Positions 2,486-16,682 of a stretch of 16,682 nucleotides of DNA are shown here, one piece after another. A program made the translations under genes and the position numbers. The stretch lies in IMG/VR virus record IMGVR_UViG_2695420653_000007, positions 1 to 16,682 of that record, one strand, 5' to 3'. Every line of letters starts with the position of its first letter. The stretch's first letter is position 1. The notes under the pieces were generated by a model. It was not told where the DNA came from. It searched no databases and saw only the letters and a list, made by a program, of their open reading frames with translations. The DNA is from a virus. Lineage: Duplodnaviria; Heunggongvirae; Uroviricota; Caudoviricetes.

Positions 2486-2488
2486 CAG

Positions 2489-2516: not shown

Positions 2517-2795
2517 CGCATTCGTTCAAATTGCGTTTACTTCTTGGCGTTCTGTTCATCCATATCGATATACCATGGGTTGCTTCCCTTGGGCATGTTT
2601 AACGACTGCTCGCGATAGTATCTGATGCGCTCCATGAAATACTCGCGTGAGTGCTCAGGTTGCTCTCATGATACCTGCTCAGTGATAACAGGTATGTTAA
2701 GGCGCTCTCTGTACTCCATGCCTGATGCTGCAAGGTCAACGTTTACCTTGTTCTGTTTTTCTTTCGATTTCTCGGCGATGTTATGCCTGACATTG

Positions 2796-3038: not shown

Positions 3039-3068
3039 TTTGTGTCCCCCCATTTTATGTACTGGGTA

Positions 3069-3077
3069 ATTATAACA
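3069..3077 (-). promoter_or_regulatory. Putative extended -10 promoter element (TGtTATAAT on minus strand) in AT-rich intergenic region 3039..3164
   Basis: Minus strand reads TGTTATAAT (plus attataaca at 3069..3077), a perfect TATAAT with upstream TG; -35 not convincing. Confidence 0.35.
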
Positions 3078-3164
3078 CATTGAAATATAGTAATATTTGA
3101 CGTAGATTTCTTTTGATCTATAAGCGATTTTTTAATGCTTTTAAGTTATAAATACTTGTTTTCA

Positions 3165-4091
3165 TCACCCATCTTGCTGCGGTGCTACTATTGAAAAGTG
3201 CTCACACCCTTTATCCCAAATAGTTTTGATAGTTGTCCAACTGACTGGAACCTTGATTTCGATTCTCCCGCTACAGTCACAAGTTTCGCAATCATCATCA
3301 CCAAAGCATTCCGGGCAGCTTATAAACGTAGTTTCTGAAAATTCACCGGATAGCACACCCTTAGCGCCGTTCTCGGCTGTTAGTCTCTTCGGCACCATGA
3401 CCCAACCATCCGGAATTACCGGAGAGTTGCCCGATAGTGCATTCTGCTCCAGTGATGCTTTTACAAACCACGCTGCCTGAACTATAACGCCATGAATCCA
3501 GCGCAAATCAGCATCGCGATCTTTCTTTTTCATCTTTTCGCCACTTAAGGCCTTGCTTATGTGGCTGCGTACCAGGTCTTCATGTAATTCCTTCGCCTCC
3601 TCAATGGTGAAACCACCAGGCAGAAGAGCCGGAGTTACCGGAGAGCTGGTTGACGCTTCCGGGATTTCCCGAAAATTATTGGTTGACGAATTCTTGCTTT
3701 CCCGAAAGTTTCCGGACTGAAGCATGGCGGTGCGGCAGGCGTTCCATATTTCGGCAGCAATATCGCGCTCGCTATCGGTTAATTTGTACGTGGAAACATA
3801 GCCAGAGAGCATTTCTACGTTTTCCGGAGTTGCTTCTTCCGGCACTACCGGCGCTGGCGGGGCGGCAAATAGATATCCGCCAAAGTCAGGAAGCTCTCCA
3901 ATGGCCTGTACGAACTTTTGTTTGCCTACGTCAACTCCTAATGGGTAATGAGCTATAATCTTTGCCACCGGCTCTGCTTCCAGCGATACCAGTGCAATCC
4001 GTGCCACTTCCATTTGTTCGCCACGAGTAAGTCCGTTATCAAGCGGATTTTTAATGAATAATTTGATACGTTCTTTGGTCATAGCGCTCAT
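3165..4091 (-). CDS. Hypothetical prophage early-region protein (308 aa) with C-terminal Cys cluster (CPECFGDDDCETCDCSG)
   Basis: Track ORF; start ATG lies 1 nt after the stop of the upstream Ea22-like gene. No confident family assignment. Confidence 0.65.
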   Translation of the reverse strand: MSAMTKERIKLFIKNPLDNGLTRGEQMEVARIALVSLEAEPVAKIIAHYPLGVDVGKQKFVQAIGELPDFGGYLFAAPPAPVVPEEATPENVEMLSGYVSTYKLTDSERDIAAEIWNACRTAMLQSGNFRESKNSSTNNFREIPEASTSSPVTPALLPGGFTIEEAKELHEDLVRSHISKALSGEKMKKKDRDADLRWIHGVIVQAAWFVKASLEQNALSGNSPVIPDGWVMVPKRLTAENGAKGVLSGEFSETTFISCPECFGDDDCETCDCSGRIEIKVPVSWTTIKTIWDKGCEHFSIVAPQQDG

Positions 4092-4092
4092 A

Positions 4093-4911
4093 TCACTCTC
4101 CTTTGATGCGAATGCCAGCGTCAGACATCATATGCAGATACTCAACTGCATCCTGAACCCATTGACCGCCAATCCCGTAATAGCGATGCGTAATGATGTC
4201 GATAGTTACTAACGGATCTTGTTCGATTAACTTCCGCAGAAACTCTTCCAGGTCACCAGTGCAGTGCTTGATGACAGGAGTTTTCCCAGGATGGCGAACA
4301 ACAAGAAACTGATTTCCGACTTCACGGACTTCGTTGCTTTCCAGTTCTGCAATGCGCTTCTCTGCGGCTTCCAGCTTCTCGCGCATATCGTCAACGTACT
4401 CGACCAGAGAACCGCCAGCAGGAATTTCGCACTCCTCGACCAGTTGGAAGTAGATATCAGCTGCGGCCCGTGTGTTGCTATGCCTAGCGTCGCCCATCTC
4501 ACCTTCACGAAGAGCATCGCGTTCGGCGGTAAGATTGGCTATTTTGCTGTCTTTGCCTTCCAGCTCAACGCGCAGCTTCCCTACCGTTAGCGCAATATCC
4601 TCGTTCTCCTGGTCGCGTGATTTGATGTATTGCTGGTTTCTTTCCCGTTCATCCAGTAATGCCAGCACGATAGCTGGATTGGCTGCGGCGATGAATTCAG
4701 CATTGGCCTGCTGTTCCATTTGGAAATCTTCATCGAAACCGCTTTCAGGATGCGCTCCTTCAATTCTGCAAATGGGAAGATATCCAACAACGTCACGATG
4801 AATTAGCGCATCATCACAATCAAATCGGCTCTCTCCATATTCGAGCGACCACACACCACACGTTGCTTTCTCTGCCTTTTCACGCAGTGCCTGATAGTCA
4901 ATTTTGCTCAC
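4093..4911 (-). CDS. ead/Ea22-like family protein (272 aa)
   Basis: N-terminus MSKIDYQALREKAEKAT... and central ...ANAEFIAAANPAIVLALLDE... match my recollection of lambda Ea22-like prophage proteins; followed by a coiled-coil-like region. Confidence 0.6.
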   Translation of the reverse strand: MSKIDYQALREKAEKATCGVWSLEYGESRFDCDDALIHRDVVGYLPICRIEGAHPESGFDEDFQMEQQANAEFIAAANPAIVLALLDERERNQQYIKSRDQENEDIALTVGKLRVELEGKDSKIANLTAERDALREGEMGDARHSNTRAAADIYFQLVEECEIPAGGSLVEYVDDMREKLEAAEKRIAELESNEVREVGNQFLVVRHPGKTPVIKHCTGDLEEFLRKLIEQDPLVTIDIITHRYYGIGGQWVQDAVEYLHMMSDAGIRIKGE

Positions 4912-5393
4912 TGGTTGCCCTCCTTCATAAAAATAATCCAGTGGGTCTTGTCACCCTTTCCTGTTCGTTGACCGATAACAGGCTTTCTGTCTGTCAGTGC
5001 CAATATTTGGCGAACAGGTATTTGCGTTTCATTCCATTTAAAAATCAGAACACCATATGGCCACAACACACGAAAGGCTTCTTTAAATCCCTGCCGCAAA
5101 TCATCACGCCAGGTATCTTTATTCAGCCGTCCATATTTCTTTCCCATCCAGGCGTTATCACCAACACGCTCAAGATGCGGAGGGTCGAATACAACAACCG
5201 GAAACGATGCGTCTGCAAATGGTAATGCACGAAAATCTGCTATCAGGTCAGGGCTAATTATCAGCCGTCGGCCATCACACAATATGTGATCTTCCTTTCT
5301 GATATCGCTAAATATCGCCCGGTCGTCCTTCTTATCGAACCAGAACATGCGACTGCCACAGCACATGTCGAGGATTGCTGCATGTCCAGTCAC
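4908..5393 (-). CDS. Small putative SAM-dependent methyltransferase (161 aa), GTG start overlapping upstream stop
   Basis: Motif I-like ILDMCCGSRMF near the N-terminus and motif IV-like VVFDPPH about 60 residues later, an arrangement seen in amino-methyltransferases (N6A/N4C DNA or RsmD-like). GTGA overlap with the upstream gene. Confidence 0.65.
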   Translation of the reverse strand: MTGHAAILDMCCGSRMFWFDKKDDRAIFSDIRKEDHILCDGRRLIISPDLIADFRALPFADASFPVVVFDPPHLERVGDNAWMGKKYGRLNKDTWRDDLRQGFKEAFRVLWPYGVLIFKWNETQIPVRQILALTDRKPVIGQRTGKGDKTHWIIFMKEGNQ

Positions 5394-6070
5394 TGGTTGC
5401 CTCCTTTGCGAAGCTGGGCGGCGAATCTCTCAGCATCAACAGCGCTTCCGCAATAGGCGGCGCGAGTCATGGAATCCAATTCGTTGCGGTTTTTTCTGAC
5501 GTATTCCTTCTGGCTTTCAGCAAACAACTCTACCCCCTGCGCCCGTACTTCAGCCAGGAATGCGTCGGTGGCTGGGGTTTCGATATTAGGCAGAAGCGCA
5601 TAATCGCAAATCGTATCGATCGCAGGATCACAACAGTCATCCTCGTTGCGTGGTCGTTCGCCAACCTTCGTTGACGATTGCATGATGATTCCCCAGCAAA
5701 TACTATCGACCTCTTCGCTCCATCCATCGCAAGCATCACCGCGATAGTCGTCGATTGCAGCCTCAGCCGATTCGATAGCTTCCTCAGCAGTTTTGTGCCA
5801 TTCAAAATTATGCTCAGAGCCATATGAGAAATATGAATGTCCCGCCTTCATCACCGCACTCTCCGCTGCCAGCGCCGCGCACTTGGCATCAATGTTATCA
5901 ATCGTGATTCCAGCAGAACGACACTCCCGCAACGCCGTTTCTAGTTTTGATTCAAGTTCACCGAACTTACGGACAAGATATTCAGCGTTTGTTTCGTTAA
6001 CCTTTAAATCTCGTGGGATGTATTTACCTTTCAGAAATCCATCCATCTCAATTAGTGACATTTGTTTCAT
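5390..6070 (-). CDS. Hypothetical acidic prophage protein (226 aa)
   Basis: Track ORF; translationally coupled at both ends (ATGA overlap with the 54-aa ORF upstream, GTGA with the methyltransferase downstream). Confidence 0.65.
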
Positions 6071-6231
6071 TTCTTCCCACTCCGCAACATCGCATTCAGA
6101 TATTTGTTTTGATTCACTGATGGAAAAGAATTTCTCTTAAGCAACTCCTCTCTCGATGGCATTGGCTTTACGCGTTGGCGAATAATCATTTCTGCCGGAA
6201 GAATGCCGGGATTGTATGCAAGTCCTCTCAT
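6067..6231 (-). CDS. Small hypothetical protein (54 aa, [54 protein letters not shown]), below the track size cutoff
   Basis: Found by manual translation; its ATG overlaps the stop of the upstream gene and its TGA overlaps the ATG of the downstream gene (ATGA at both ends), filling an otherwise empty 160-bp gap. Confidence 0.4.
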
Positions 6232-6518
6232 GATTTACTCTCCACGAACTGGTCAATAGCCATGCTAAGTGACATACCTAAAGCTTCGATATGCTGCTGA
6301 ATATCCTGTAGCGTCTGCGCCTGAGATAACAGGATTTCACGGTTGCATAACTCTTTAACCAGATGCTCAAACTTGCTGTAATAACCGATACGACTTAGTG
6401 TTTCTTTCCCTGCATTCTCGCCTTCTTTGATAATGCCTCTTTCACTAAGAATCATGTCGTGTTTGGTTCCGGTAATAACGTATTTTCCGAGGTCGATGTT
6501 TAGCTTCATTGTTTTCAT
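6228..6518 (-). CDS. Hypothetical prophage protein (96 aa, [14 protein letters not shown]...)
   Basis: Track ORF 6228..6668 trimmed to the ATG at 6518, which is preceded by GAGGAA and does not overlap the upstream gene ending at 6529. Confidence 0.6.
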
Positions 6519-6528
6519 TGTTAATTCC

Positions 6529-6822
6529 TCAGTCATTACTGATAGCGCCATAGCGTGAGCGGTAATTACGCAGGCGCGGGTCAATTTCAGGGAAGTGGGT
6601 ATATGTGGCTTTGCGGAATGGTCGGATTGATGTCTGGTAAATTCGCTCGCGTTCTTCTTTCTCTGCAAGCCATATACAGTGGCGAAATTCCTTTTCCTCT
6701 TTCGTTTCCTGCGGTAGCGACATTATCCGGTCGTAGTTTTTCCTGAATTTATCCAGCACCTCCGATACGGAATTGCCGGAACAGCGGCGCGCGTCGTCCG
6801 CACCATACAGAGGCGCTGGCAT
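6529..6822 (-). CDS. Hypothetical prophage protein (97 aa)
   Basis: Track ORF; AAGGA 7 nt upstream of ATG; located immediately downstream of ssb. Confidence 0.6.
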   Translation of the reverse strand: MPAPLYGADDARRCSGNSVSEVLDKFRKNYDRIMSLPQETKEEKEFRHCIWLAEKEERERIYQTSIRPFRKATYTHFPEIDPRLRNYRSRYGAISND

Positions 6823-6845
6823 AATTAAATCCTTATTTTTCTAAA

Positions 6846-7229
6846 TCAGAATGGGATGGAATCGTCGTATACAGGAGTGTTCTGCTGGTTACTACTTTGC
6901 TGCTGCGGGCCATTTCCTGAAGCTGCAAATCCAATCTTTGCATTCAGTAATTCAAGAGTGATTGATTGACCATTTTGCCCCTGATAAACATCAACCCTGA
7001 TATTTTCTCCGGTAATTTCCACAATGCCACCTTCAACAAGAACACTACGGTAGTAATCCGCTTGCGCCCCCGGCTTGGCAAATACAACGGCGCTGTAGTT
7101 TGTCCATTCTTTCTTTTTTGTCTGGCGATCGTAATACTGAACGCCAGCACGGATGTTGAATCCGATATTTTCCCCGGCCTGAAACTCTCTTGCGGGCTTG
7201 TTTAGTCTTACTGTAATCGAATGTGCCAT
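6846..7229 (-). CDS. ssb: Single-stranded DNA-binding protein (phage SSB, about 127 aa)
   Basis: C-terminal acidic tail ...PVYDDSIPF (E. coli SSB ends DDDIPF); Gly/Gln/Asn-rich linker before the tail; start ATG overlaps the erf stop (TAATG). Confidence 0.8.
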   Translation of the reverse strand: MAHSITVRLNKPAREFQAGENIGFNIRAGVQYYDRQTKKKEWTNYSAVVFAKPGAQADYYRSVLVEGGIVEITGENIRVDVYQGQNGQSITLELLNAKIGFAASGNGPQQQSSNQQNTPVYDDSIPF

Positions 7230-7834
7230 TAAGCAGTTGCCCCTTCTAATTCGCCTCGTCTGATGTTGTAAACGTCCTGCGCTTTGTGCTGCTCCGGCGT
7301 CCCTTCGAGCATCTTCCACGCTTTGGCGAACGCCTGTTTAAGCTCTTCTACGGTGTTTTTCTGCATTGCTGCGTCAGTGAATGCTTTTAGAACCTGTTCA
7401 GGTGTAGGTGATGGTTTTGATTGCTTTGCTGCTGCGTTCTGCTGATGTTTATGCTCGTCGGTATCTGCATCTTTCGCATCATCAATGCCGAACAAACCAT
7501 TGAGGCAATACTTGCGTGCATAAGAGCTTGTAGCCCCCGTAACTTGTGCAGAATCCATTCCTTTCTTGCTTTCTTCCTCTCGTGCTAGTGCGGTTGCCGT
7601 ATGACTGTTTTCGCCATCGGTAATAGTTGCCGTGGCTTTCACATAATACCGATCACCAATCAACACAACTTCATCGCTGATTGATAAAAACAGGCCATTC
7701 AGTAACGGCTTAACGCCTTCAAGAATGTCTTCGCAGCTTCTGTATTTATATTTACCGAATGAGTTGTACTGATTCTTTGGCGCGTTCAGATTCTCCTGAA
7801 TAGCTGCCAGTCTTGCGTAAAATTCTTTGCTCAT
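7229..7834 (-). CDS. erf: Erf-family single-strand annealing recombinase (201 aa)
   Basis: From MSKEFYARLAAIQENLNAPKNQYNSFGKYKYRSCEDILEGVKPLL... onward it matches, as I recall it, Salmonella phage P22 Erf almost residue for residue; track ORF trimmed to the ATG at 7834. Confidence 0.9.
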   Translation of the reverse strand: MSKEFYARLAAIQENLNAPKNQYNSFGKYKYRSCEDILEGVKPLLNGLFLSISDEVVLIGDRYYVKATATITDGENSHTATALAREEESKKGMDSAQVTGATSSYARKYCLNGLFGIDDAKDADTDEHKHQQNAAAKQSKPSPTPEQVLKAFTDAAMQKNTVEELKQAFAKAWKMLEGTPEQHKAQDVYNIRRGELEGATA

Positions 7835-7844
7835 ATGATTGTTC

Positions 7845-8015
7845 TCAGAATGGACATGGCCCAAGGAAATAACGCTGATTTAATACTTCGACTCGGGACA
7901 AATTAAGGCATACCCGCATTCCTTCGCGGTCGCCATTATGGCGATACCAGAGAGCTTTCTGCGTGTACATGCGTCTCTGTAACTTGCTCTCCTTCACTGT
8001 GGTTGCAAGTGACAT
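7845..8015 (-). CDS. Small protein (56 aa, MSLATTVKESKLQRRMYTQKALWYRHNGDREGMRVCLNLSRVEVLNQRYFLGPCPF) in the arf position just upstream of erf
   Basis: Manual translation; strong SD (AAGGAG, 6-nt spacer) before ATG; stop lies 10 nt before the erf ATG. Positionally equivalent to P22 arf but identity not confirmed. Confidence 0.45.
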   Translation of the reverse strand: MSLATTVKESKLQRRMYTQKALWYRHNGDREGMRVCLNLSRVEVLNQRYFLGPCPF

Positions 8016-8094
8016 GAATATCTCCTTCGTTACCGATTAATTCTTTCATCTGACGAATGAATTCTTCGTCTGACCAGTTATCTGTAAAACTCAT
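7936..8094 (-). CDS. Alternative small ORF (52 aa, MSFTDNWSDEEFIRQMKELIGNEGD...) translationally coupled to kil; overlaps the arf-position ORF in another frame
   Basis: ATG overlaps the kil stop (ATGA). Overlaps 7845..8015 by 80 nt; unclear which of the two (or both) is expressed. Confidence 0.3.
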   Translation of the reverse strand: MSFTDNWSDEEFIRQMKELIGNEGDIHVTCNHSEGEQVTETHVHAESSLVSP

Positions 8095-8243
8095 TTCCTG
8101 CGATACCATGGAAGGTTGATAGCTGATTTCATCGCTTTATTTGCTTCAAGCCACATTTTGGAATCACCAATAAATCTGGCTATTACTGCTTTGTTCTGTG
8201 CAGCACGAAGCATCTGGTGATTAATGGCTATTTCATTGCGCAT
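8091..8243 (-). CDS. kil: Kil-like host-killing/cell-division inhibitor peptide (50 aa)
   Basis: Manual translation MRNEIAINHQMLRAAQNKAVIARFIGDSKMWLEANKAMKSAINLPWYRRK; the IARFIGDSKMWLEA segment resembles lambda Kil (ATFIGDEKMFREA, from memory); sits directly after cIII as in lambda/P22; GAGG upstream. Confidence 0.55.
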   Translation of the reverse strand: MRNEIAINHQMLRAAQNKAVIARFIGDSKMWLEANKAMKSAINLPWYRRK

Positions 8244-8359
8244 AATAAGACCTCAACTCTTTTCCATCCGTCACGTAATTTACGGGTGATTCGTTCAAGT
8301 AAAGATTCATTTAGTTGGAAGGCACCCATGCGAGCGCCTACCGCGATTGCGTAAATCAT
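8228..8359 (-). CDS. cIII: CIII protein, FtsH inhibitor (43 aa)
   Basis: Manual translation MIYAIAVGARMGAFQLNESLLERITRKLRDGWKRVEVLLCAMK; the core ESLLERITRKLRDGWKR is identical to the lambda cIII central helix; AAGGA 7 nt upstream. Confidence 0.8.
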   Translation of the reverse strand: MIYAIAVGARMGAFQLNESLLERITRKLRDGWKRVEVLLCAMK

Positions 8360-8383
8360 GGGTGGTTCCTTATGTTGGTTTTA

Positions 8384-9352
8384 TTAGTAGGTTATTTTTG
8401 TTGCGAATACTTCGCCTTTTACGATGGCTGTTATGATATTTTTAGCAACATCTTCTGATGCGCCAACCTTGATAAGGTCAGCAAGTATTTTGTTATTTAC
8501 TTCTTTCCGGTGAGCTTTATCCTTTGCTCTACGCTCTTCTTCGTCCTTGATTCTTTTTTCTTCTGCTATTCTGGCTTGCTCTTTTGCTTCAGCATCGCGA
8601 CGGATTTGTTCAGCCTCCTCCTGTGCTTTTCGGCGTTCTGCTTCAATTGCCGCCTGCTTTTCTCTTTCAGCTCGTTCTGCTGCCTCTTTTGCTTCGCGCT
8701 GTGCTCGTTGCTCGGCTTCAATGCGTTCACGCTCTGCACGTTCCGCTGCGGCCTTAGCTTCTGCTTCTCGCCTTGCTGCTGCTTCAATTTCGGCTTTTGC
8801 CTTTGCTTCGGCTTCAGCTCTGGCTTTCGCTTCAGCTTCTCTTTTTAAGCGTTCTTCATGCTCTCGCTTTTCCTGCTCCGCTTTGAGTCTTGCCTCTTCT
8901 CTTTGGCGGTCAAATTCGCGATCCATCAAAATAGCTATTTCATGGTCAGACTCAATTTGCTTTGCGAGAGCTTCAGCTGCTGCCTTAGCTTCTTCTTCGG
9001 CTTTAATCCGCGCCTGTTCTTCCTCATAATCAGTAAGAGGCTGGCGCGCCTTGGCTTTCAGCTCATCAAGGCGATCACGCACTGTCTTGCGGTTAGCATC
9101 AATTAGCTTTGGAATTTCCTTCAGTTCAGCAACAAGGTCTTTGCCAAGACCATCGAGATATGTTTTCGTCTGCGAAACTTTATACGCCAGAGAAGCGATC
9201 TCCTTTCTGCCCTTTGCCGTTGTGATATCAGGCACAAAGGACATAACTTCACGTTCAACCTTTTGAAGGATTTCTTCAATCTGGTCGGCAGACTGAAATA
9301 CAGTCATTGCATTTGCTTTTTCAATAACAACTAAATCTGTTACTTCACTCAT
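8384..9352 (-). CDS. Hypothetical phage protein (322 aa) with long Ala/Glu/Lys/Arg-rich charged coiled-coil (TolA-like low complexity)
   Basis: Track ORF trimmed to ATG at 9352 (MSEVTDLVVIEK...) preceded by GGAGG; about 150 residues of EAKAKAEAEA-type repeats encoded by GCTTC/GCTGC-rich DNA. Confidence 0.7.
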   Translation of the reverse strand: MSEVTDLVVIEKANAMTVFQSADQIEEILQKVEREVMSFVPDITTAKGRKEIASLAYKVSQTKTYLDGLGKDLVAELKEIPKLIDANRKTVRDRLDELKAKARQPLTDYEEEQARIKAEEEAKAAAEALAKQIESDHEIAILMDREFDRQREEARLKAEQEKREHEERLKREAEAKARAEAEAKAKAEIEAAARREAEAKAAAERAERERIEAEQRAQREAKEAAERAEREKQAAIEAERRKAQEEAEQIRRDAEAKEQARIAEEKRIKDEEERRAKDKAHRKEVNNKILADLIKVGASEDVAKNIITAIVKGEVFATKITY

Positions 9353-9363
9353 ATATCCTCCAT

Positions 9364-9393
9364 AAAAAAAATTGCCCTCACATTGGAGGGCAA
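9364..9393 (-). terminator. Strong intrinsic terminator on minus strand (8-bp stem TTGCCCTC/GAGGGCAA, 6-nt loop, T8 run), tL-like
   Basis: Perfect 8-bp inverted repeat followed on the minus strand by eight T; the T-run abuts the RBS of the 322-aa gene. Confidence 0.65.
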
Positions 9394-9486
9394 AGAAGAT
9401 TTCCAATAATCAGAACAAGTCGGCTCCTGTTTAGTTACGAGCGACATTGCTCCGTGTATTCACTCGTTGGAATGAATACACAGTGC

Positions 9487-9675
9487 TTATTCGTCATGCA
9501 TTTCAGGTAATTCTTCGTATTCGACGCCCCATACGAGTTTACACCAAGTGACTCGCTCATATCTTTTACAAAAATCAGACCACATAACTTGTGTTCCATC
9601 ATGGTTTGTTATTACTTCTGTAATATCACCAACACTAACAAAACTGGTATTAGAAGCAGTTATTTTTACTTTCAT
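9487..9675 (-). CDS. Hypothetical small protein (62 aa), AT-rich accessory gene
   Basis: Track ORF; ATG overlaps the stop of the upstream 98-aa gene (TAATG); followed by a 9-bp-stem hairpin at 9454..9481. Confidence 0.5.
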   Translation of the reverse strand: MKVKITASNTSFVSVGDITEVITNHDGTQVMWSDFCKRYERVTWCKLVWGVEYEELPEMHDE

Positions 9676-9971
9676 TACTTATCCCCAAGAGCTTTTCTTA
9701 TTGCTGCGAGACCTTTATTAACAGCTCCATACCATTCTGGATATGTTGTCGTTGTTCTATTTTTGGTTTGCTTAAGTAATAACTGAAGTGCTTCGAGAAG
9801 GTCAGGTGCTGCCGCTATTAGATTGGCATCTTCAATGCATTGAACTTCCTCACAGATTGCAATATACGAACGCCAGCCTGCGCCATTTTCAAGTGAGTCT
9901 GCCTGGATGATTTTAATCTCATCCCCATCCATCATTATTTCCCACTTACCTTCAGTACCTTTAAATCCCAT
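9675..9971 (-). CDS. Hypothetical acidic protein (98 aa), AT-rich accessory gene
   Basis: Track ORF; AGAGG 7 nt upstream of ATG; coupled to the 62-aa ORF. Confidence 0.55.
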   Translation of the reverse strand: MGFKGTEGKWEIMMDGDEIKIIQADSLENGAGWRSYIAICEEVQCIEDANLIAAAPDLLEALQLLLKQTKNRTTTTYPEWYGAVNKGLAAIRKALGDK

Positions 9972-10023
9972 GTTAGCCTCTGTTGTTTATGCCAAAAATA
10001 AAGGACGGTTATGCGGCCTGAAA

Positions 10024-10446
10024 TTACTTAACCAATGATGCTGCATATTCAATTAGGAATAACTTAGGTGCAAGCCAAATCTTCAACCATTCGAAATTGA
10101 AGGCAATAATTAAAACACCCATAATTGAGCCAAATATAGGAACAAATACAGTGCATATATCGTAATAAACCGAAGATATAAAATGTCCATCATTTGGACG
10201 TCCATCGAAAGACGTCCATCTCTCGCCATTATTTCTTGCCGTTCTTGCAAAACTAGGAAGTTTAATTGCTGCAATTAAAAGCAACAATCCAGCCACTTGG
10301 AAAAGTGCGCTATGGACAAAACTCCATATTAGCAACTGATGAACAACATCAGGAATCTGTGCCTGGCTAAATGAAACAGCCGCATCTATTCCATTGCTGG
10401 CTTTTTGCAGTAGTTCTACGAGAATCTTGTTGGCTTGTTCTTCCAT
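10024..10446 (-). CDS. Hypothetical membrane protein (140 aa, about 2 TM segments) immediately downstream of N; SieB-position superinfection-exclusion candidate
   Basis: Track ORF; two long hydrophobic stretches; its SD (GAGGTG) overlaps the N stop codon; position matches sieB in lambda/P22 but no sequence identity established. Confidence 0.6.
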   Translation of the reverse strand: MEEQANKILVELLQKASNGIDAAVSFSQAQIPDVVHQLLIWSFVHSALFQVAGLLLLIAAIKLPSFARTARNNGERWTSFDGRPNDGHFISSVYYDICTVFVPIFGSIMGVLIIAFNFEWLKIWLAPKLFLIEYAASLVK

Positions 10447-10454
10447 ATATCACC

Positions 10455-10754
10455 TCAAATAAGTGGTTTGCTGCCTAATTTCATTTTCTGGCGACCAACA
10501 CAAGTCACCCCCATTTCACTGCGTGGCTTGCGGTAGTAAATATGATTCTGTTTACGCTCGACTTCTTCTGCCTTCTTGCAGCGAAGGCTTCCGAGTGATG
10601 CTGCTTTATCTGCTCTGACGCAACCAGAGAGCTTTAGCGCAATTTTTCGCGCCAGTCGCTGTTCTTGCATTGCCTGCTCACGTTGAGCCTGTCTGCGTGC
10701 TCTGCGGCGATTTCTGGCGTTATCGTCAGCCAGATATGTAATGACTACTGCCAT
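10455..10754 (-). CDS. N: Antitermination protein N (99 aa)
   Basis: Arginine-rich motif near N-terminus (NARNRRRARRQAQREQ); C-terminus YYRKPRSEMGVTCVGRQKMKLGSKPLI closely resembles lambda N C-terminus (WYSKPGERGITCSGRQKIKGKSIPLI, from memory); GGAGG 6 nt upstream; nutL in leader. Confidence 0.85.
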   Translation of the reverse strand: MAVVITYLADDNARNRRRARRQAQREQAMQEQRLARKIALKLSGCVRADKAASLGSLRCKKAEEVERKQNHIYYRKPRSEMGVTCVGRQKMKLGSKPLI

Positions 10755-10861
10755 GTTGACCTCCGATGATTGACTTTGGCGGTGACGCGCCGGGTGCTTA
10801 TCTTCCGGTTGCCGTCGTGCAGCTGCACTTCACGTCACCCCAAAGCCAACTACTCTTTGGT

Positions 10862-10902
10862 TCCCGCATTTCGGCGGGACAATCCCATCAATGTTAAAGA
10901 GC
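10862..10902 (-). promoter_or_regulatory. nutL: boxA (GCTCTTTAACAT, 10891..10902) and boxB hairpin (UCCCGC-CGAAAU-GCGGGA, 10862..10879) on the leftward transcript
   Basis: Same boxA core and identical 18-nt boxB as the site after cro (nutR); correct order boxA then boxB in the N leader. Confidence 0.6.
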
Positions 10903-10948
10903 CTGCCAATCTGTTCCGTTTGGCTTCCAGCGTCCTGCTGATGGCTAA

Positions 10949-11035
10949 AGAATACTGTAGGTATTTTATTGTGTAAATACCCAAGGTATTTATTTTTGGT
11001 GAAATAATGATAAGCAAATGAATACAAAGGATATT
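10949..11035 (-). promoter_or_regulatory. pL/OL region: operators AATACTGTAGGTATT (10951..10965), AATACCCAAGGTATT (10976..10990), AATACAAAGGATATT (11021..11035); putative pL -10 TATTCT and -35 TTTACA on minus strand
   Basis: Three 15-bp sites with inverted half-sites AATAC/GTATT, the same consensus as at OR; -10 overlaps OL1 and -35 overlaps OL2 with a 17-bp spacer, as at lambda pL. Confidence 0.55.
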
Positions 11036-11121
11036 TATTTTTTCGGTGTCTGCTTGTTCAGTGCTTTTTATGCGGGATATGTGAAGTGGATCCCGATAGC
11101 TATTGCTGCCGGGATTATGGG

Positions 11122-11490
11122 TTAGTCAGCGAAGGTTAAGACGAGAATTACCTTAATGATGTCTGCTACAACAGACACGGCCATAGATAAACCAAAGACA
11201 ATCCAAGCCATAGAGATGTCTTCACTACCATCGTATAGAGTTCCGTAATCACTGGTGTAAGGCGTAAATGTCGCGCCTTGATACAATAGGTATAAGCTTG
11301 ATCCATAGAGGATAAATGCAGATATCCCTTGTATTGCTATGATCACCAGAATCATGAAACGAGCTGATCTATGCGCCCAAGCCTGGCTTATTTTTTCTGA
11401 TAGAGATTTCGCAATAAAAGCATGCGCTAAGCCGTAAATTGTCGAGATTGCCAACATCCCAAAAAAGCTTGCTATAGCGGTTCCAACCAT
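11122..11490 (-). CDS. Small integral membrane protein (about 122 aa, 3 predicted TM helices) co-transcribed with cI; rex-position accessory gene
   Basis: Track ORF 11122..11511 trimmed to ATG at 11490 (AAGGGG 7 nt upstream), which lies 18 nt downstream of the cI stop; three long hydrophobic segments; no family recognised. Confidence 0.65.
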   Translation of the reverse strand: MVGTAIASFFGMLAISTIYGLAHAFIAKSLSEKISQAWAHRSARFMILVIIAIQGISAFILYGSSLYLLYQGATFTPYTSDYGTLYDGSEDISMAWIVFGLSMAVSVVADIIKVILVLTFAD

Positions 11491-11507
11491 AAGCGCCCCT
11501 TGCGTGA

Positions 11508-12224
11508 TCAAACCAGCCTTAGTTTTGTCTCAATTGCAACGCCTATAATCTTGCAGTTTCCATTGATTGGCACGAGAGGCCATGCAGGGTTAAGTCCCTT
11601 GAGGTATTTATTTCCGCCGTCGATTATCAGCTTCTTGAATGTTGCTTCGTTAGAGTCAGAAAGTTTTGCTATGACCAAGCTGCCGTTGATCGCCTCCCTT
11701 CCGGTATCGAAAAGAACGAATGTTCCCTCTGGAATGCTTAACCCAACCGGTGCCGTCATTGAATCACCTTCCACTTTAAGCCAAAACGCATTACCTTGAA
11801 TATGCGCGTCAGACTCAAGCCAAACATCTATGTCTTTAATGGTGTATGGTTCGCATGCTTCACACCACGAGCCAGCCTGGATACTGCTTAACACCGGATA
11901 CCTCTTTCCTGCTCTGTATTCCCCTGCATACCTTACGTTGGCATCGCTCTTAAGGCTTTCTGCCTGTTCTGCAACCTTGGCAGCAATTGACTGGCTAAAA
12001 TCAGCAATTGAGACTTGCAACAGTCGTGCAAAACCAGATGCAACCTCAACGTTTAGCGCGTTTCTGCCATTAAGATAATGCCCTACCGCTCCTTGGGTGA
12101 TACCAAGTTCATCAGCAATTGAGTATTGGGTTATTCCCAACTCTTTCTTTTTTGACTCATACAAAGCCTTAAGCCGCTTAGCGTCTTCGAGCTGTTCTGT
12201 CGTCAGTGATTTCTTATTTTCCAT
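11508..12224 (-). CDS. cI: CI repressor (238 aa; N-terminal HTH, C-terminal LexA-like S24 autopeptidase domain)
   Basis: N-terminus LTTEQLEDAKRLKALYESKKKELGITQ parallels lambda cI ([27 protein letters not shown]); C-terminal FWLKVEGDSMTAP and FKKL motifs (catalytic Ser/Lys); no SD before ATG, consistent with a leaderless pRM transcript. Confidence 0.9.
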   Translation of the reverse strand: MENKKSLTTEQLEDAKRLKALYESKKKELGITQYSIADELGITQGAVGHYLNGRNALNVEVASGFARLLQVSIADFSQSIAAKVAEQAESLKSDANVRYAGEYRAGKRYPVLSSIQAGSWCEACEPYTIKDIDVWLESDAHIQGNAFWLKVEGDSMTAPVGLSIPEGTFVLFDTGREAINGSLVIAKLSDSNEATFKKLIIDGGNKYLKGLNPAWPLVPINGNCKIIGVAIETKLRLV

Positions 12225-12230
12225 AGCTTA

Positions 12231-12301
12231 ATTCTAATAGCTAAGGTACTTAAACTAAAAATACCCTGAGTATTGATTGCTTTGAATACCTGTAGTATTC
12301 T
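12231..12301. promoter_or_regulatory. OR/pRM/pR genetic switch: OR3 AATAGCTAAGGTACT (12236..12250), OR2 AATACCCTGAGTATT (12260..12274), OR1 AATACCTGTAGTATT (12285..12299); pR -35 TTGATT (12273..12278) and -10 TATTCT (12296..12301); pRM -10 TAGAAT on minus (12231..12236)
   Basis: Three evenly spaced (24-25 bp) 15-bp sites sharing the AATACnnnnnGTATT consensus with OL; promoter hexamers overlap the operators as in lambda; pRM -10 is 6 nt from the cI ATG. Confidence 0.6.
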
Positions 12302-12330
12302 TTGTTCATGGTTAATAACGGAGTGTGCAT

Positions 12331-12525
12331 ATGATTCGAATGACACTTGCCGATTACGCCAAAATCCATGGACAGGCTAAAGCAGCCAGTGACTTTGGTG
12401 TAATCCAGTGCGCTATCAGCAAGGCCATTCTGGCAGGCCGTAACATTATGGTTACGGTAAAGCCTGATGGCAGTGTGATTGGAGAGGAAGTTCGTCCTTT
12501 CCCAAGCAACAAGAAAAACAAATAG
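12331..12525 (+). CDS. cro: Cro repressor (64 aa)
   Basis: [64 protein letters not shown] parallels lambda Cro (...[57 protein letters not shown]); GGAG 7 nt before ATG at 12331. Confidence 0.85.
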
Positions 12526-12531
12526 TAACAC

Positions 12532-12577
12532 CGCTCTTTAACAGTCATGGTCCTCATTCCCGCCGAAATGCGGGAAT
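12532..12577 (+). promoter_or_regulatory. nutR: boxA CGCTCTTTAACA (12532..12543) and boxB hairpin AUUCCCGC-CGAAAU-GCGGGAAU (12556..12577)
   Basis: Begins 7 nt after the cro stop; boxA close to the CGCTCTTA consensus; boxB identical to that in nutL. Confidence 0.6.
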
Positions 12578-12582
12578 ACAAC

Positions 12583-12617
12583 GCGCATCAGTTGGTGCGC
12601 ATAACTTCTTATTTGTT
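12583..12617 (+). terminator. tR1-like hairpin (GCGCAUC-AGUU-GGUGCGC) followed by U-rich tract, between nutR and cII
   Basis: 7-bp stem (one G-U pair) and AUAACUUCUUAUUUGUU downstream; position matches lambda tR1. Confidence 0.35.
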
Positions 12618-12633
12618 AAGGAAATACTTACAT

Positions 12634-12912
12634 ATGCAACTTACAAGTACTCGCAAGAAAGCGAATGCAATTACAAGCAACATCCTAAATCGAATTGCTG
12701 TACGTGGTCAGCGAAAGGTTGCTGATGCATTAGGGATCAATGAATCGCAAATTTCGCGATGGAAAGACAGCTTCATCCCAAAAATGGGAATGCTTCTGGC
12801 TGTTCTTGAATGGGGTGTTGAAGACGAGGAGTTGGCGGAACTGGCTAAGAAAGTAGCCAGAATGCTGACAAAAGAAAAAGCCCCGAAGAACGGCGAATTC
12901 TTCGAGGCCTGA
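12634..12912 (+). CDS. cII: CII transcriptional activator (92 aa)
   Basis: ...GINESQISRWKDSFIPKMGMLLAVLEWGVEDEELAELAKKVARMLT matches lambda cII (...GVDKSQISRWKRDWIPKFSMLLAVLEWGVVDDDMARLARQVAAILT); ATG at 12634 preceded by AAGGAAA; track ORF starts further upstream but that region contains nutR. Confidence 0.85.
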   Translation: MQLTSTRKKANAITSNILNRIAVRGQRKVADALGINESQISRWKDSFIPKMGMLLAVLEWGVEDEELAELAKKVARMLTKEKAPKNGEFFEA

Positions 12913-12946
12913 TGTAGAAAGACTGGATCAATCCACAGGAGTAATT

Positions 12947-13591
12947 ATGACATACGAAAATGACAAATTCCAGGTTCTGAAGAGCATGAAGGTGCCAGAT
13001 GATTTTAAATCAAATGGCTTTGTTTATGTGCTTTCGAATGAGTGCATGCCGGGAATTTATAAGATTGGGATGACTAAGCATTCACCAGAAGTTAGGGCTA
13101 AAGAAATTTCAGCCTCTACTGGCGTTCCTAAGCCATTTAAGGTGATAGCAGCCTTTCATTCAAATAATCCCGCATCAGATGAAAAACTTATTCATAAAGC
13201 CTTTGCAAAAGAGAGGCTTAGTGATAATCGAGAGTTTTTCAAGCTTGAAGATAATGATCTTTATGAATCTCTAAATGAAATAAGGGCGCTGGTTGGCCCT
13301 GAAAGAAATGGCGAGACGGCAGAATACGCAATTTACGACTCATTCATTTCTTTTCGCCATGAAAATGAGCTTGATCTTAATGAGGAGCTTATAGAGCAAG
13401 GTCTGGGTAGTGTAGTTGGTCATCTTCCTGCGATGAAAAATTTCCTTATTCGCGCCGGAATTGATTACGCGAAGCAACTGATAAGCAAATATAACTCATC
13501 GATAGTTATTAATACAGATGGCAGTGTGGTGATGGTTAAGTCTCTTGAAGCCCAATGCTTTGATGCGGAGGTTGGAAATGAGCCTTGCTGA
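12947..13591 (+). CDS. T5orf172 (GIY-YIG-like, MUG113-type) domain protein (214 aa), AT-rich insertion between cII and O
   Basis: N-terminal region GFVYVLSNECMPGIYKIGMTKHSPEVRAKEI ... EKLIHKAFAKERLSDNREFFKLE fits the remembered T5orf172 signature (G-VY-V, KIG-T, R--E, H--F, REFF); AGGAG 7 nt upstream; visibly more AT-rich than cII and O. Confidence 0.65.
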   Translation: MTYENDKFQVLKSMKVPDDFKSNGFVYVLSNECMPGIYKIGMTKHSPEVRAKEISASTGVPKPFKVIAAFHSNNPASDEKLIHKAFAKERLSDNREFFKLEDNDLYESLNEIRALVGPERNGETAEYAIYDSFISFRHENELDLNEELIEQGLGSVVGHLPAMKNFLIRAGIDYAKQLISKYNSSIVINTDGSVVMVKSLEAQCFDAEVGNEPC

Positions 13592-14420
13592 AGTATTTTA
13601 CCTGCCGAAGAGTGAACCTGTTGAACAGGAGCGAAGAGTGGCTGATATCGATGATGGTTACACCAGATTCGCTAACGAGCTGCTGGAAGCTATCGCAAGT
13701 GCCGATTTAACCGCTCGCCAGTTGAAAGTTATGCTGGCCTACGTCCGGAAAACATATGGATTCAATAAGAAAACAGATCGAATAGCCGATGAGCAAATTG
13801 CTCAGTTAACAGGACTGTCAAGGCAGAATGTTAACAAGGCTAAAAAAGAACTGATTTCAATGAATTGCCTGTTTATGGATGGAAATCAAATCGGTGTAAA
13901 CAGTGAGGTATCTGCGTGGCAATTCAGCAAGTGTCTCCAAGTTAGCAACTTTGTCTCGAAGTTAGAGACAAAAAATGTCTCCAAATTAGAGACACTCAAT
14001 GTCTCGAAGTTAGAGACACACAAAAGACATTCTTTAAAGACAAAAGAAAATATTAATAAACCCCCTATATCCCCCAAAAAAGTTTCTCAGAAGTTCGACC
14101 CGCTAGAAACAGAGTTGCCTGATTGGTTATCAGCAGAAACATGGTTGTCGTGGGTTACCTATCGCAAGGAGATAGGCAAGTCGATCAAGTCTAAGCAAAG
14201 TGTCACTCAGGCTATCAACGTTCTAAGCAGAAGTCTGGAGAAGGGATATACACCTGAAGAAATTATAAACCAGAGCATCGCCAGTGGTTGGCAGGGGATT
14301 TTTGAGCCCAAGACTCCAAAGGGGAAACCTCAACCGAGGCCGCAGCATCGAGCTATGCAGGAAAACTTTGCCACCAAAGATTACGGACAAACTGAAATGC
14401 CTTCATGGGCGCAGGAGTGA
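13578..14420 (+). CDS. O: Replication initiator O (Phage_rep_O N-terminal domain; contains ori iterons)
   Basis: ERRVADIDDGYTRFANELLEAIASADLTARQLKVMLAYVRKTYGFNKKTDRIAD parallels lambda O (ERNVADLDDGYARLSNMLLEAYSGADLTKRQFKVLLAILRKTYGWNKPMDRITD); GGAGG 7 nt before ATG at 13578; iterons inside coding sequence. Confidence 0.85.
   Translation: MSLAEVFYLPKSEPVEQERRVADIDDGYTRFANELLEAIASADLTARQLKVMLAYVRKTYGFNKKTDRIADEQIAQLTGLSRQNVNKAKKELISMNCLFMDGNQIGVNSEVSAWQFSKCLQVSNFVSKLETKNVSKLETLNVSKLETHKRHSLKTKENINKPPISPKKVSQKFDPLETELPDWLSAETWLSWVTYRKEIGKSIKSKQSVTQAINVLSRSLEKGYTPEEIINQSIASGWQGIFEPKTPKGKPQPRPQHRAMQENFATKDYGQTEMPSWAQE
13932..14060. repeat. Origin of replication: four 19-bp palindromic iterons (TGTCTCnnnnnnnGAGACA type) at about 13932, 13952, 13977 and 14000, followed by AT-rich tract
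   Basis: TGTCTCGAAGTTAGAGACA occurs twice exactly (13952..13970, 14000..14018), with variants TGTCTCCAAATTAGAGACA and TGTCTCCAAGTTAGCAAC; they encode the repetitive SKLET peptide in O; A/T-rich 14019..14060. Confidence 0.7.
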
Positions 14421-14422
14421 AC

Positions 14423-15268
14423 ATGACGCTGGATGAAAAGATCTCCCAACTGGAGAAAAAACTTGCAGAATTGAGTTCTCCGCCAATTGCTATCGAGCAT
14501 ACATCTGTAGAAATTGGCACTGGCATCTGTGAAAAACATGGTGAGTTTGAGCAGCGTAACCGTTACTCGACTGGGCCAATTAAGTTTGCCTCAAGACCTA
14601 GCGAATGCCCGGAATGCATGAGAGATGAGCTTATTCGGCTACAGGCAGAGAAGATTAAAATCGACGAGGAATCACGTAAGCGCAATGTCGAGTTTCTGTT
14701 GAATAATCTTGATATTCCTGAACGATTCAAGGGTTGCACACTACAGAACTACGAGCCAGTCAACGACGATGCAAAGAGAGTGCTCAGGGTGTGTCAGGCA
14801 TACGCCAGCAAATGGCCTGAGAGGTTACAGAAAGGCGGTGGGCTGGTTATGTGTGGAAAGCCTGGTACTGGAAAGAATCATCTTGCACTGGCTATCGCCC
14901 GGCACGCAATTACGGAACATCAAAGCTCAGCTATTTTCACAACGGCGCTGAAAATTGCCAGAGAATATAAATCAACATGGTCTAAAAACTCCACCCGCAC
15001 AGAGGATGAAGTGATCCGACAGTTCACTAAACCTGACCTGCTAATTATCGATGAGGTTGGTGTGCAGTTTGGAAGCGAGGCGGAAAAGATGATCATGTTC
15101 GAAATCATCAACACCCGCTACGAGTGCATGAAGCCAACGATCCTGATTAGCAACCAGAGCAAAGATGAACTGTCTGCATTCATTGGTGAGCGTGTTATTG
15201 ACAGGATGAATGATGGCGGCGGGTGCACTCTTGCGTTTACATGGGATAGTTACAGGAGCAGATCGTGA
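14423..15268 (+). CDS. DnaC-like helicase loader (IstB/DnaC AAA+ ATPase) with N-terminal Cys-rich zinc-ribbon-like motif
   Basis: Walker A GKPGTGKNHLALAIA and Walker B LLIIDEVG; CxxH...CPEC near the N-terminus; AGGAG 7 nt before ATG at 14423, just after the O stop. Confidence 0.85.
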   Translation: MTLDEKISQLEKKLAELSSPPIAIEHTSVEIGTGICEKHGEFEQRNRYSTGPIKFASRPSECPECMRDELIRLQAEKIKIDEESRKRNVEFLLNNLDIPERFKGCTLQNYEPVNDDAKRVLRVCQAYASKWPERLQKGGGLVMCGKPGTGKNHLALAIARHAITEHQSSAIFTTALKIAREYKSTWSKNSTRTEDEVIRQFTKPDLLIIDEVGVQFGSEAEKMIMFEIINTRYECMKPTILISNQSKDELSAFIGERVIDRMNDGGGCTLAFTWDSYRSRS

Positions 15269-15555
15269 CTGGAAAAGAAATCATCCTGGAATATCTGAAA
15301 ACTCATGAACAATTCTCCCCACATGAATTAGCACTGATCACCGGAATACCAAATAACAGAATCGCTCAAGCAGCAAGGCATATGGTGAAACAAGGACATT
15401 TGAGTGTTGTTGAGCGTAAGTGGAAGACGGTTATTTATGCAAAACGCAAAGTGAAGAAGGAGCCAATTAAAAGAAATCCAGATGGTACGGGGTGGGGATG
15501 TGCAAATCCAATGACGGCGTTTATTAATAGGGCGCTTATGGAGGTAAGGCAATGA
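15265..15555 (+). CDS. Hypothetical nin-region protein (96 aa), possible winged-helix DNA-binding protein; GTG start
   Basis: Track ORF; GTG overlaps the stop of the DnaC-like gene (GTGA); AGGAG upstream. Confidence 0.55.
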   Translation: MTGKEIILEYLKTHEQFSPHELALITGIPNNRIAQAARHMVKQGHLSVVERKWKTVIYAKRKVKKEPIKRNPDGTGWGCANPMTAFINRALMEVRQ

Positions 15556-15635
15556 CCATCTACATCACTGAGCTAATAACAGGCCTGCTGGTAATCGCAG
15601 GCCTTTTTATTTGGGGGAGAGTAAATCGTGGCTGA
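15552..15635 (+). CDS. Tiny hydrophobic peptide (27 aa, MTIYITELITGLLVIAGLFIWGRVNRG), possible small membrane protein
   Basis: Manual translation; ATG overlaps the stop of the upstream gene (ATGA); single hydrophobic helix. Below track cutoff; speculative. Confidence 0.3.
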   Translation: MTIYITELITGLLVIAGLFIWGRVNRG

Positions 15636-15834
15636 GTTTATGCTCGTCGCATTCAAATGCGTTGGCGTTGGATGGATTCTTCTGACGTTTTTTATTGTTC
15701 TGCATAGCTACATTCGTCTTGTGAATGACGGTAAAGACCCATGGTATACGTTGTTTGGCGCTGCATTTGTCTGGGTGATTATCGGTGTTATGCCTGTTGT
15801 CGTAGCAAAAATGGCGTGGCGTTTTGTGAGTTGA
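15628..15834 (+). CDS. Small membrane protein (68 aa, 2 TM), GTG start
   Basis: Track ORF; GGGGGAGAG upstream of GTG; two hydrophobic helices. Confidence 0.5.
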   Translation: MAEFMLVAFKCVGVGWILLTFFIVLHSYIRLVNDGKDPWYTLFGAAFVWVIIGVMPVVVAKMAWRFVS

Positions 15835-15851
15835 ACTGAGGGTAAGTATCG

Positions 15852-16181
15852 ATGGACGAATCAAGAAAGCAGTTTGAAGAATGGTTTGAAAACAAATATC
15901 ACGTTTCAAGTGACGTGATGAAGATTATGCACATCAAGGTCGAGATTGCATGGGAGGCATGGCAGGCATCGCGAGCAGCTATTGAACTGGATATCGACTG
16001 GCCCGAATCGAATGACGACTTTTGGAAAGATGGTGAAGAAGGTGCTTATGCGATGGGTTATGAGGATGGGAGAGACAAAACGGTAATTGCAGTAATGAAA
16101 GCTATCAGATCCGCTGGAATTAAAGAGAAGAATTTCGATGAAGCAAATATACATGCTTCGCAACGAAGCAATCAGAAATAA
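15852..16181 (+). CDS. Hypothetical nin-region protein (109 aa)
   Basis: Track ORF; GAGGGTAAG upstream of ATG. Confidence 0.6.
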   Translation: MDESRKQFEEWFENKYHVSSDVMKIMHIKVEIAWEAWQASRAAIELDIDWPESNDDFWKDGEEGAYAMGYEDGRDKTVIAVMKAIRSAGIKEKNFDEANIHASQRSNQK

Positions 16182-16584
16182 CGCCATAGACGCAATACTC
16201 TCACTTCCCATCGACGACAAGTCACCCCACGAAGTCCACCTTAAAGAACCCAAACGCAGCAAAGCGCAGAATGACCGTATGTGGCCGATGCTGAACGATG
16301 TTTCGCGTCAGGTGCTATGGCATGGTCAACGGCTGGCACCGGAAGACTGGAAAGACCTGTTCACTGCCCTGTGGCTTAAGACCAAAAAACTGGAGCAACG
16401 AAGTGTTCCTGGTATCGACGGTGGCGTTGTCATGCTTGGCGTGCGTACCAGCAAAATGCGAAAGGCCAGCATGACTGAGCTTATCGAAATCATGTTCTGG
16501 TTCGGCTCAGAGCGCAACGTGCGGTGGAGTGATGACTCCCGGCGAGAGTATGAATGGTCACAACGAAAAGGGAAGGCTGCATGA
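16138..16584 (+). CDS. ninB: NinB (Orf-family recombination mediator)
   Basis: QNDRMWPMLNDVSRQVLWHGQRLAPEDWKDLF parallels lambda NinB (QNRKLWACLGDVSRQVEWHGRWLDAESWKCVF); start could alternatively be the ATG 15 nt downstream. Confidence 0.85.
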   Translation: MKQIYMLRNEAIRNNAIDAILSLPIDDKSPHEVHLKEPKRSKAQNDRMWPMLNDVSRQVLWHGQRLAPEDWKDLFTALWLKTKKLEQRSVPGIDGGVVMLGVRTSKMRKASMTELIEIMFWFGSERNVRWSDDSRREYEWSQRKGKAA

Positions 16585-16682
16585 CTATCAAATCAAATAC
16601 GCCAGCACACGACAAGGACTGCTGGCAAACGCCGCTTTGGCTTTTTGATGCACTGGATATTGAGTTTGGATTCTGGCTGGAT
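16581..16682 (+). CDS. Phage Dam-family DNA N6-adenine methyltransferase, 5' fragment (continues beyond window)
   Basis: N-terminus MTIKSNTPAHDKDCWQTPLWLFDALDIEFGFWLD matches the remembered start of phage Dam-family enzymes (W-x-TP-x-LF ... F-x-LD); ATG overlaps the ninB stop. Confidence 0.65.
   Translation, partial: MTIKSNTPAHDKDCWQTPLWLFDALDIEFGFWLD

Follow-up and report, generated by a model that had tools for sequence, protein, structure and literature searches.

Two nut sites in an HK620-type immunity region

The 16,682-nucleotide window analyzed here (positions 1 to 16,682 of the Caudoviricetes record IMGVR_UViG_2695420653_000007 in IMG/VR) carries two identical RNA hairpins on either side of a lambdoid immunity region, and the question is whether these are the boxB elements of nutL and nutR, and whether they form with the arginine-rich motif (ARM) of the adjacent N protein a recognition pair of their own. 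Our analysis indicates that they are very probably the boxB hairpins of a lambdoid Escherichia coli prophage of the HK620 immunity type, which would act in N antitermination and present a GAAA loop stacked on a C·U mismatch. A string search detected exactly two copies of the 18-mer TCCCGCCGAAATGCGGGA (RNA form UCCCGCCGAAAUGCGGGA), one on the minus strand (10862-10879) and one on the plus strand (12558-12575). Allowing up to two mismatches added no further copy anywhere in the 16.7 kb, and none of the 200 dinucleotide-preserving shuffles produced a match. A boxA element (GCTCTTTAACA) lies 5' of each 18-mer on the same strand, at 10892-10902 (minus) and 12533-12543 (plus), separated from the 18-nucleotide core by 12 nucleotides at nutL and 14 nucleotides at nutR; the extended strings are GCTCTTTAACAT for nutL and CGCTCTTTAACA for nutR. 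The string search and the shuffles thereby bear out the first-pass annotation, which had reported an identical 18-nucleotide core and related boxA elements at both sites.

The position of the two elements is that of nut sites, one in the pL transcript before N and the other in the pR transcript after cro, and both hairpins are in the sense orientation relative to these divergent transcripts. The nutL site lies 46-115 nucleotides downstream of a pL-like promoter and 107 nucleotides upstream of the N start. This promoter (TTTACA-17-TATTCT, 10949..10977, minus strand), at which the nutL-N transcript would start, was found by a consensus scan and coincides with the mapped HK620 pL. The nutR site begins 7 nucleotides past the stop codon of cro. 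The boxA of nutL (GGCUCUUUAACA, 10892..10903, minus) and that of nutR (CGCUCUUUAACA, 12532..12543, plus, directly after the cro stop) both conform to the CGCUCUU(U)A consensus and stand 5' of boxB across a short spacer. Their common element GCUCUUUAACA matches the rrn-type consensus, and binding of NusB/NusE is expected. The nutL spacer (UUGAUGGGAUUG, 10880..10891, minus) is homologous to that of phage 21 (phi21), and the nutR spacer was read from the sequence at 12544..12555 (plus). The nutL hairpin, UCCCGC / C-GAAA-U / GCGGGA, occupies 10862..10879 (minus), as given by string search and folding, and the nutR hairpin, AUUCCCGC / C-GAAA-U / GCGGGAAU, extends the core at 12558-12575 to an 8-bp stem at 12556..12577 (plus). 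A search with the Rfam covariance models gave no relevant match at E ≤ 1 within 10400-13000.

Over the 2.5 kb around the sites, the window shares 98.5% identity with the immunity regions of HK620, HK630, HK140, mEpX2, and several Shiga toxin (Stx) phages. The HK620 record AF335538 annotates N, nutL, pL, OL1-3, cI, OR1-3, pR, cro, nutR, tR1, and cII, and the window has the same layout, pL-nutL-N and pR-cro-nutR-cII. When the HK620 features were mapped (window position = L001 coordinate + 10062), nutL and nutR fell on 10862-10903 and 12532-12577, the exact limits of both sites, and the 42 and 46 nucleotides of the annotated elements are 100% identical to the window. The open reading frames (ORFs) between and around the sites encode a cI-type repressor, Cro, and CII. 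The repressor gene, with helix-turn-helix and S24 peptidase domains in a domain search, lies between the nut sites (11508..12224, minus). The first gene of the pR operon is cro (12331..12525, plus; Pfam Cro, E = 3.6e-26), with nutR after it as in lambda; both genes agree with the HK620 annotation. Position, orientation, and the HK620 annotation thus support the earlier naming of these sites as nutL and nutR.

The N gene and its arginine-rich motif

The gene 107 nucleotides downstream of the nutL boxB (10455..10754, minus) encodes an N antitermination protein of 99 residues, which matches phrog_271, 'anti-termination protein N-like', at E = 5e-36, and its C-terminal 38 residues match the RNA polymerase-binding end of lambda N (PDB 6GOV, E = 6.5e-4). 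The HK620-type ARM DDNARNRRRARRQAQREQ is located within residues 1-33. The predicted boxB binder, DDNARNRRRARRQAQREQA, spans codons 10-28 (10671..10727, minus) and is homologous codon for codon to the ARM of phi21. By tblastn, residues 1-64 match HK620, HK630, mEp213, HK140, and ECP1 at 95-98%, residues 37-99 share 95% identity with phage 21 N, and full-length matches at 97% occur in CUS-3, IME10, and vB_EcoP-611R6. Judged by these alignments, the window N is a recombinant in which an HK620-type ARM end is joined to a phage 21-like remainder, with a sharp joint at about codon 33/34 (10656-10754 versus 10455-10655, minus).

The alignment of the window with phage 21 DNA from nutL through N shows where the two cassettes part. 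The boxA and spacer are 83% identical, boxB 39%, the leader 72%, N codons 1-33 46%, and the codons after 33 97%. The ARMs still align codon for codon, A-R-N-R-R-R-A-R-R-Q-A in the window and A-K-S-R-Y-K-A-R-R-A-E in phage 21. Because boxB and the ARM alone differ between otherwise homologous nut-N cassettes, it is these two elements that were exchanged, or diverged, together.

From this arrangement we infer that N binds the two hairpins and acts as an antiterminator. Transcription from pL and pR would yield nascent RNAs, each with a boxA, a spacer of 12-15 nucleotides, and a boxB hairpin. The N-terminal arginine-rich helix (residues ~10-28, as given above) would bind boxB at the loop and along the 5' strand of the stem, and the central and C-terminal parts of N, which are nearly identical to phage 21 N and end in a lambda N-like segment, would engage NusA and RNA polymerase. 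The elongation complex carrying N would then become resistant to downstream terminators.

Co-inheritance of ARM and boxB classes

The ARM and boxB were classified independently in 80 IMG/VR loci of close N relatives, 79 loci found via a diverged relative, and named phages. The ARM class predicted the boxB class in all 156 loci in which both were readable (93 HK620-type, 33 P22-type, 27 phi21-type, and 3 lambda-type), with no cross-pairs; between the HK620 and phi21 classes, there was no cross-pairing in 120 loci. The central and C-terminal N modules are common to several ARM classes and shuffle freely, and the same boxB was found with several immunity regions (HK620-type, CUS-3/P22-c2-type, and L213-type) but with one ARM only. 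The window carries both halves of the HK620 specificity class, namely the ARM core NARNRRRARR and the boxB (U/G)CCCGC-CGAAAU-GCGGG(A/G) at both sites. The one-to-one co-segregation of ARM and boxB classes in the 156 loci argues strongly, on comparative grounds, that the HK620-type ARM and the CGAAAU hairpin are cognate partners and a pair apart from those of lambda, P22, and phi21, and co-inheritance suggests that this pair is distinct in recognition as well.

The first-pass annotation had proposed that the hairpin and the ARM may be a distinct N-boxB recognition pair. The cognate pairing holds, and its novelty does not, because the same ARM and 100% identical nut sites are annotated in the HK620 record AF335538 (2001). 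The same ARM and nut sites also occur in HK630, HK140, mEpX2, mEp213, CUS-3, IME10, N7, ECP1, and others.

The catalogued pairs are as follows. Lambda, Sf6, and HK544 combine the ARM MDAQTRRRERRAEKQAQW with the boxB GCCCU-GAARA-AGGGC. P22-type phages (SH2026Stx1, ENT47670) combine NAKTRRHERRRKLAIERD with GCGCU-GACAA-AGCGC and CCGC-C-GACAA-C-GCGG, and the P22 ARM peptide and boxB RNA are confirmed in PMC11480772. The phi21 type (phi21, mEp235, PA28, VT1-Sakai) has the ARM TAKSRYKARRAELIAERR with UCUCAAC-CUAACC-GUUGAGA and UCACCU-CUAACC-GGGUGA. An H-19B-type ARM, NSRSRRRERLKAK, occurs with the P22 boxB in P27, and the SI8-type (AAGRRRERRAALQ) and F349-type (AASRRRARRANLQ) ARMs occur with GAAA hairpins, CGGCU-GAAA-AGCCG for the former, UGGCU-GAAA-GGCCA for the latter, and UCGCU-GAAA-AGCGA for both.

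In the Stx phage P27, the boxB at ~3322-3336, upstream of the H-19B-type N, is identical to the P22 nutL boxB GCGCUGACAAAGCGC, and a pattern search found no canonical boxA near it. The contig IMGVR_UViG_3300013343_000002 carries two N genes in tandem on one strand (~1716-3300), the first with a P22 ARM and preceded by a boxA and GCGCUGACAAAGCGC, and the second with an HK620 ARM and preceded by UCCCGCCGAAAUGCGGGA without a recognizable boxA. This contig may represent a phage with two antitermination specificities or a recombination intermediate.

Fold of the boxB hairpin and alternative explanations

Secondary structure prediction by minimum free energy gives a 6-bp stem at nutL and an 8-bp stem at nutR, both with the six-nucleotide loop CGAAAU, in agreement with the apparent six-base loop noted earlier. 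The z-scores of the 21-nucleotide hairpins range from -3.3 to -3.8, and none of 200 shuffles folds as well. The earlier description of lambda and P22 boxB as 5-bp stems with pentaloops is correct, and the window hairpins, with 6-8 bp and a six-nucleotide loop, depart from that type, which is closed by U-A and carries a GAARA or GACAA pentaloop. However, the comparison had left out phage 21, in which boxB combines a stem of 6-7 bp with a hexaloop that begins and ends in a pyrimidine, and the window has this geometry (UCCCGC-C GAAA U-GCGGGA versus UCACCU-C UAAC C-GGGUGA). The hairpin is different from those of lambda and P22 and has the geometry of phage 21 boxB, so a hexaloop is not without precedent; its loop core is that of the SI8- and F349-type tetraloop boxBs. 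By analogy with phi21, the CGAAAU loop most likely consists of a canonical GNRA tetraloop, GAAA, on top of a non-canonical closing mismatch, C·U.

The hairpin is strongly conserved. The nutL boxB is invariant in the 80 close relatives, the loop CGAAAU is invariant in all 12 distinct boxB variants, and the loop together with the CCCGC/GCGGG stem is invariant in about 190 sites apart from changes in the L213 group, L241, and L290. Flanking identity to the window falls to 75-88% in the L213 group, whose nutL and nutR both have U·G instead of U-A as the bottom pair; the ARM and loop are unchanged there. One nutR, in L241, has G·U in place of G-C. Across the 12 distinct sequences, 88.5% of cells are paired, a share that drops to 32-62% once the 3' partners are displaced by 1-3 columns, and three stem pairs are changed on both sides. 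ARM variants are limited to rare single substitutions (A13T, R20H, A19D, and Q22V/A), all with the same boxB, and a protein search with the 44-residue ARM module gave only 12 truncated or frameshifted copies of the same ARM and no new variation.

The L213-L243 group carries the identical change GCGGGA to GCGGGG in nutL and nutR, which suggests gene conversion between the sites or a shared constraint. The first diverged relative, L156/L213, came from a scan of viral contigs with GCTCTTTAN{8,30}CGAAAT, which otherwise gave mostly chance matches. Among the matches listed in a scan of genome contigs with the 16-mer CCCGCCGAAATGCGGG, there were only chance matches in unrelated taxa.

An alternative register of the loop was also considered: G13 would take C7 as its partner, C6 would bulge out, and GAAAU would form a GNRA-like pentaloop with an extra U, so that the hairpin would be a disguised lambda-type boxB. 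This register is sterically possible, pentaloops of GNRA type with an extra base inserted after position four are known (PMC12550061), and protein binding could shift the equilibrium towards it. With nearest-neighbour energies, however, it reaches -6.3 kcal/mol with a pair probability of 0.006 for C7-G13, compared with -9.7 kcal/mol and 0.988 for C6-G13 in the hexaloop register, a disadvantage of 3.4 kcal/mol. Moreover, the closest homologous site, that of phi21, is described in PMC12550061 as a solved hexaloop with a pyrimidine-pyrimidine closing pair. We consider the lambda-like pentaloop unlikely, and the functional difference would be small because a GAAA tetraloop fold would be presented to the ARM in either register. 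The canonical pentaloop by alternative pairing, which the first-pass annotation had named as a possible outcome, is thus disfavoured by energy, and the comparative data are equal for both registers.

GC-rich, stable hairpins in a 5' leader or in intercistronic RNA could also be terminators, attenuators, or hairpins for RNA stability or processing instead of N-binding sites, and in lambda, Rho also enters at the nutR/tR1 region (PMC3526286). Against this highly improbable explanation, the hairpins always lie 12-17 nucleotides 3' of boxA and co-vary with the ARM class of N, not with the flanking genes. The intrinsic terminator in particular was rejected because a U-tract is absent 3' of either hairpin, and neither hairpin appeared in the terminator scan. 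We give almost no credence to the idea that the 18-mers, which form an imperfect DNA palindrome flanking the immunity region, are chance repeats or DNA-level binding sites for a protein such as a repressor, since the shuffles exclude chance, the same boxB spans different immunity regions with a single ARM, OL1-3 and OR1-3 are annotated elsewhere with unrelated sequences, and the asymmetric loop CGAAAT keeps the transcript sense at both sites, which indicates a constraint at the RNA level.

Several observations weigh against the reading of the hairpins as N-binding boxB elements with a C·U-closed GAAA loop. The HK620 record itself labels the sites 'nutL; putative N-utilization leftward' and 'nutR; putative N-utilization rightward', and no experimental study of an HK620-type ARM/boxB pair was found in the literature searched, the HK620 genome paper being outside it. 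The window N scores below the gathering cut-off of Pfam N_peptide (21 versus 27.9 bits). In L290, the nutR stem has a C/C mismatch, together with a compensatory change of G-C to A-U. The contig IMGVR_UViG_2731957842_000007 encodes an HK620-type N, but neither a boxA nor a CCGAAATG hairpin was found within 4 kb upstream of the gene, and this prophage has probably been rearranged or become defective. With respect to the loop, the covariation test on the 12 distinct sequences gave each register the same counts, as none of C6, C7, and G13 ever varies, and the preference for the hexaloop is one of modelled nearest-neighbour energies and of analogy.

Comparison with known N-boxB systems

HK620 (AF335538 / NC_002730) is the closest named system: in addition to the identical nut sites, residues 1-64 of N are 97% identical, and the cI, cro, and cII region is 98.5% identical. 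The HK620 N differs in having 90 residues and a different C-terminal third, whereas the window N, like that of CUS-3 and IME10, ends in a phage 21-like tail.

The phi21 system resembles that of the window in its 6-7 bp stem, a six-nucleotide loop that starts with C and has AA at loop positions 3-4, homologous boxA, spacer, and leader, N DNA that is 97% identical past codon 33, and an ARM homologous by codon with the common framework residues A, R, A, R, and R. It differs in the loop, CUAACC instead of CGAAAU (a UAAC versus a GAAA core, and C·C versus C·U closing), in unrelated stem sequences, and in the ARM (TAKSRYKARRAEL versus NARNRRRARRQAQ here); the loop CUAACC goes with the ARM TAKSRYKARRAELIAERR in phi21 and CGAAAU goes with NARNRRRARRQAQREQ in the window. 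For the phi21 N-boxB complex, a nuclear magnetic resonance (NMR) structure is available (1NYB, Cilley & Williamson 2003), and PMC12550061 describes its CUAACC hexaloop as UAAC in a GNRA-like fold with a C-C pair closing it.

Lambda shares with the window a GNRA-type loop sequence, the ARM pattern A-x-x-RRR-x-RR, a homologous RNA polymerase-binding C-terminal end of N, and the order boxA-spacer-boxB after pL and after cro. It differs in its 5-bp stem, U-A closing pair, and pentaloop with one extruded purine, and in its boxA (CGCUCUUA versus the rrn-like GCUCUUUAACA here). In NMR structures of the lambda N-boxB complex, Trp18 of N stacks on the boxB loop, whereas the position of Trp18 aligns with an Ala in the window N. 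In P22 boxB-right (CCGC-C-GACAA-C-GCGG), a pyrimidine/pyrimidine apposition likewise closes a natural boxB loop, with a C/C apposition at the loop-closing position (PMC6023938); the differences are its GACAA pentaloop with an extruded C and its ARM NAKTRRHERRRKLAIERD.

A true GAAA loop core and related ARMs (AA[SG]RRR[AE]RRA) are found in the SI8 type and the Stx2a_F349 type. Their boxB hairpins (CGGCU-GAAA-AGCCG, UCGCU-GAAA-AGCGA, and UGGCU-GAAA-GGCCA) differ from those of the window in having 5-bp stems closed by U-A or U·G and plain tetraloops without a pyrimidine-pyrimidine mismatch, and their N proteins, of 90-127 residues, belong to an H-19B-like lineage. The Salmonella phage SI8 has GAAA-tetraloop boxBs at ~3347-3360 and ~736-749, and Stx2a_F349 has them at ~3388-3402 and downstream of cro. 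Together with those of the window, they make a series in which the chief variable is the closing pair, U-A, U·G, or C·U.

Other genes in the immunity region

Between cI and OL, a 129-residue ORF (11122-11511, minus) is a homologue of HK620 hkaS (phrog_6534, a family of unknown function). Lambda has rexAB at this position, and the ORF may be an exclusion gene expressed from the prophage. Between cII and the replication genes, a 214-residue ORF (12947-13591, plus) has T5orf172/MUG113 domains, and the matching ORF in E. coli prophages carries the RefSeq label GIY-YIG nuclease family protein. HK620 differs in lacking a GIY-YIG/T5orf172 ORF after cII and has the small hkaW gene there instead.

Distribution and meaning of the HK620-type pair

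Lambdoid phages carry exchangeable ARM/boxB specificity modules. Of 5426 complete E. coli genomes, 526 (~10%) contain the nutL-ARM module of the window, in 413 cases at a coverage of 80% or more, and it is also present in more than 540 IMG/VR contigs. The nut sites are real, were correctly observed, and are an already known, catalogued feature of a common E. coli lambdoid prophage; with the sites and the N gene annotated in AF335538 and present in about one in ten complete E. coli genomes, their weight as a discovery is small. That divergent N termini imply new boxB specificities was stated as a general point in the genome paper of phage ε34 (PMC2629481).

Two by-products of the analysis extend beyond this prophage. 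The 156 loci provide a natural swap table, in which four ARM classes sit on shuffled N scaffolds with one boxB class each, and boxB elements with a GAAA core occur with three different closing pairs (U-A, U·G, C·U). We tentatively entertain the possibility, which we regard as somewhat doubtful, that the HK620-type ARM and boxB are a genuinely orthogonal pair, in which a plain GAAA loop, with neither an extruded base nor a Trp stack, would be told apart from the boxBs of SI8/F349 and lambda through the invariant C·U mismatch and the CCCGC stem. If so, the closing mismatch would be a specificity determinant, and the pair would provide a new orthogonal tag for RNA tethering.

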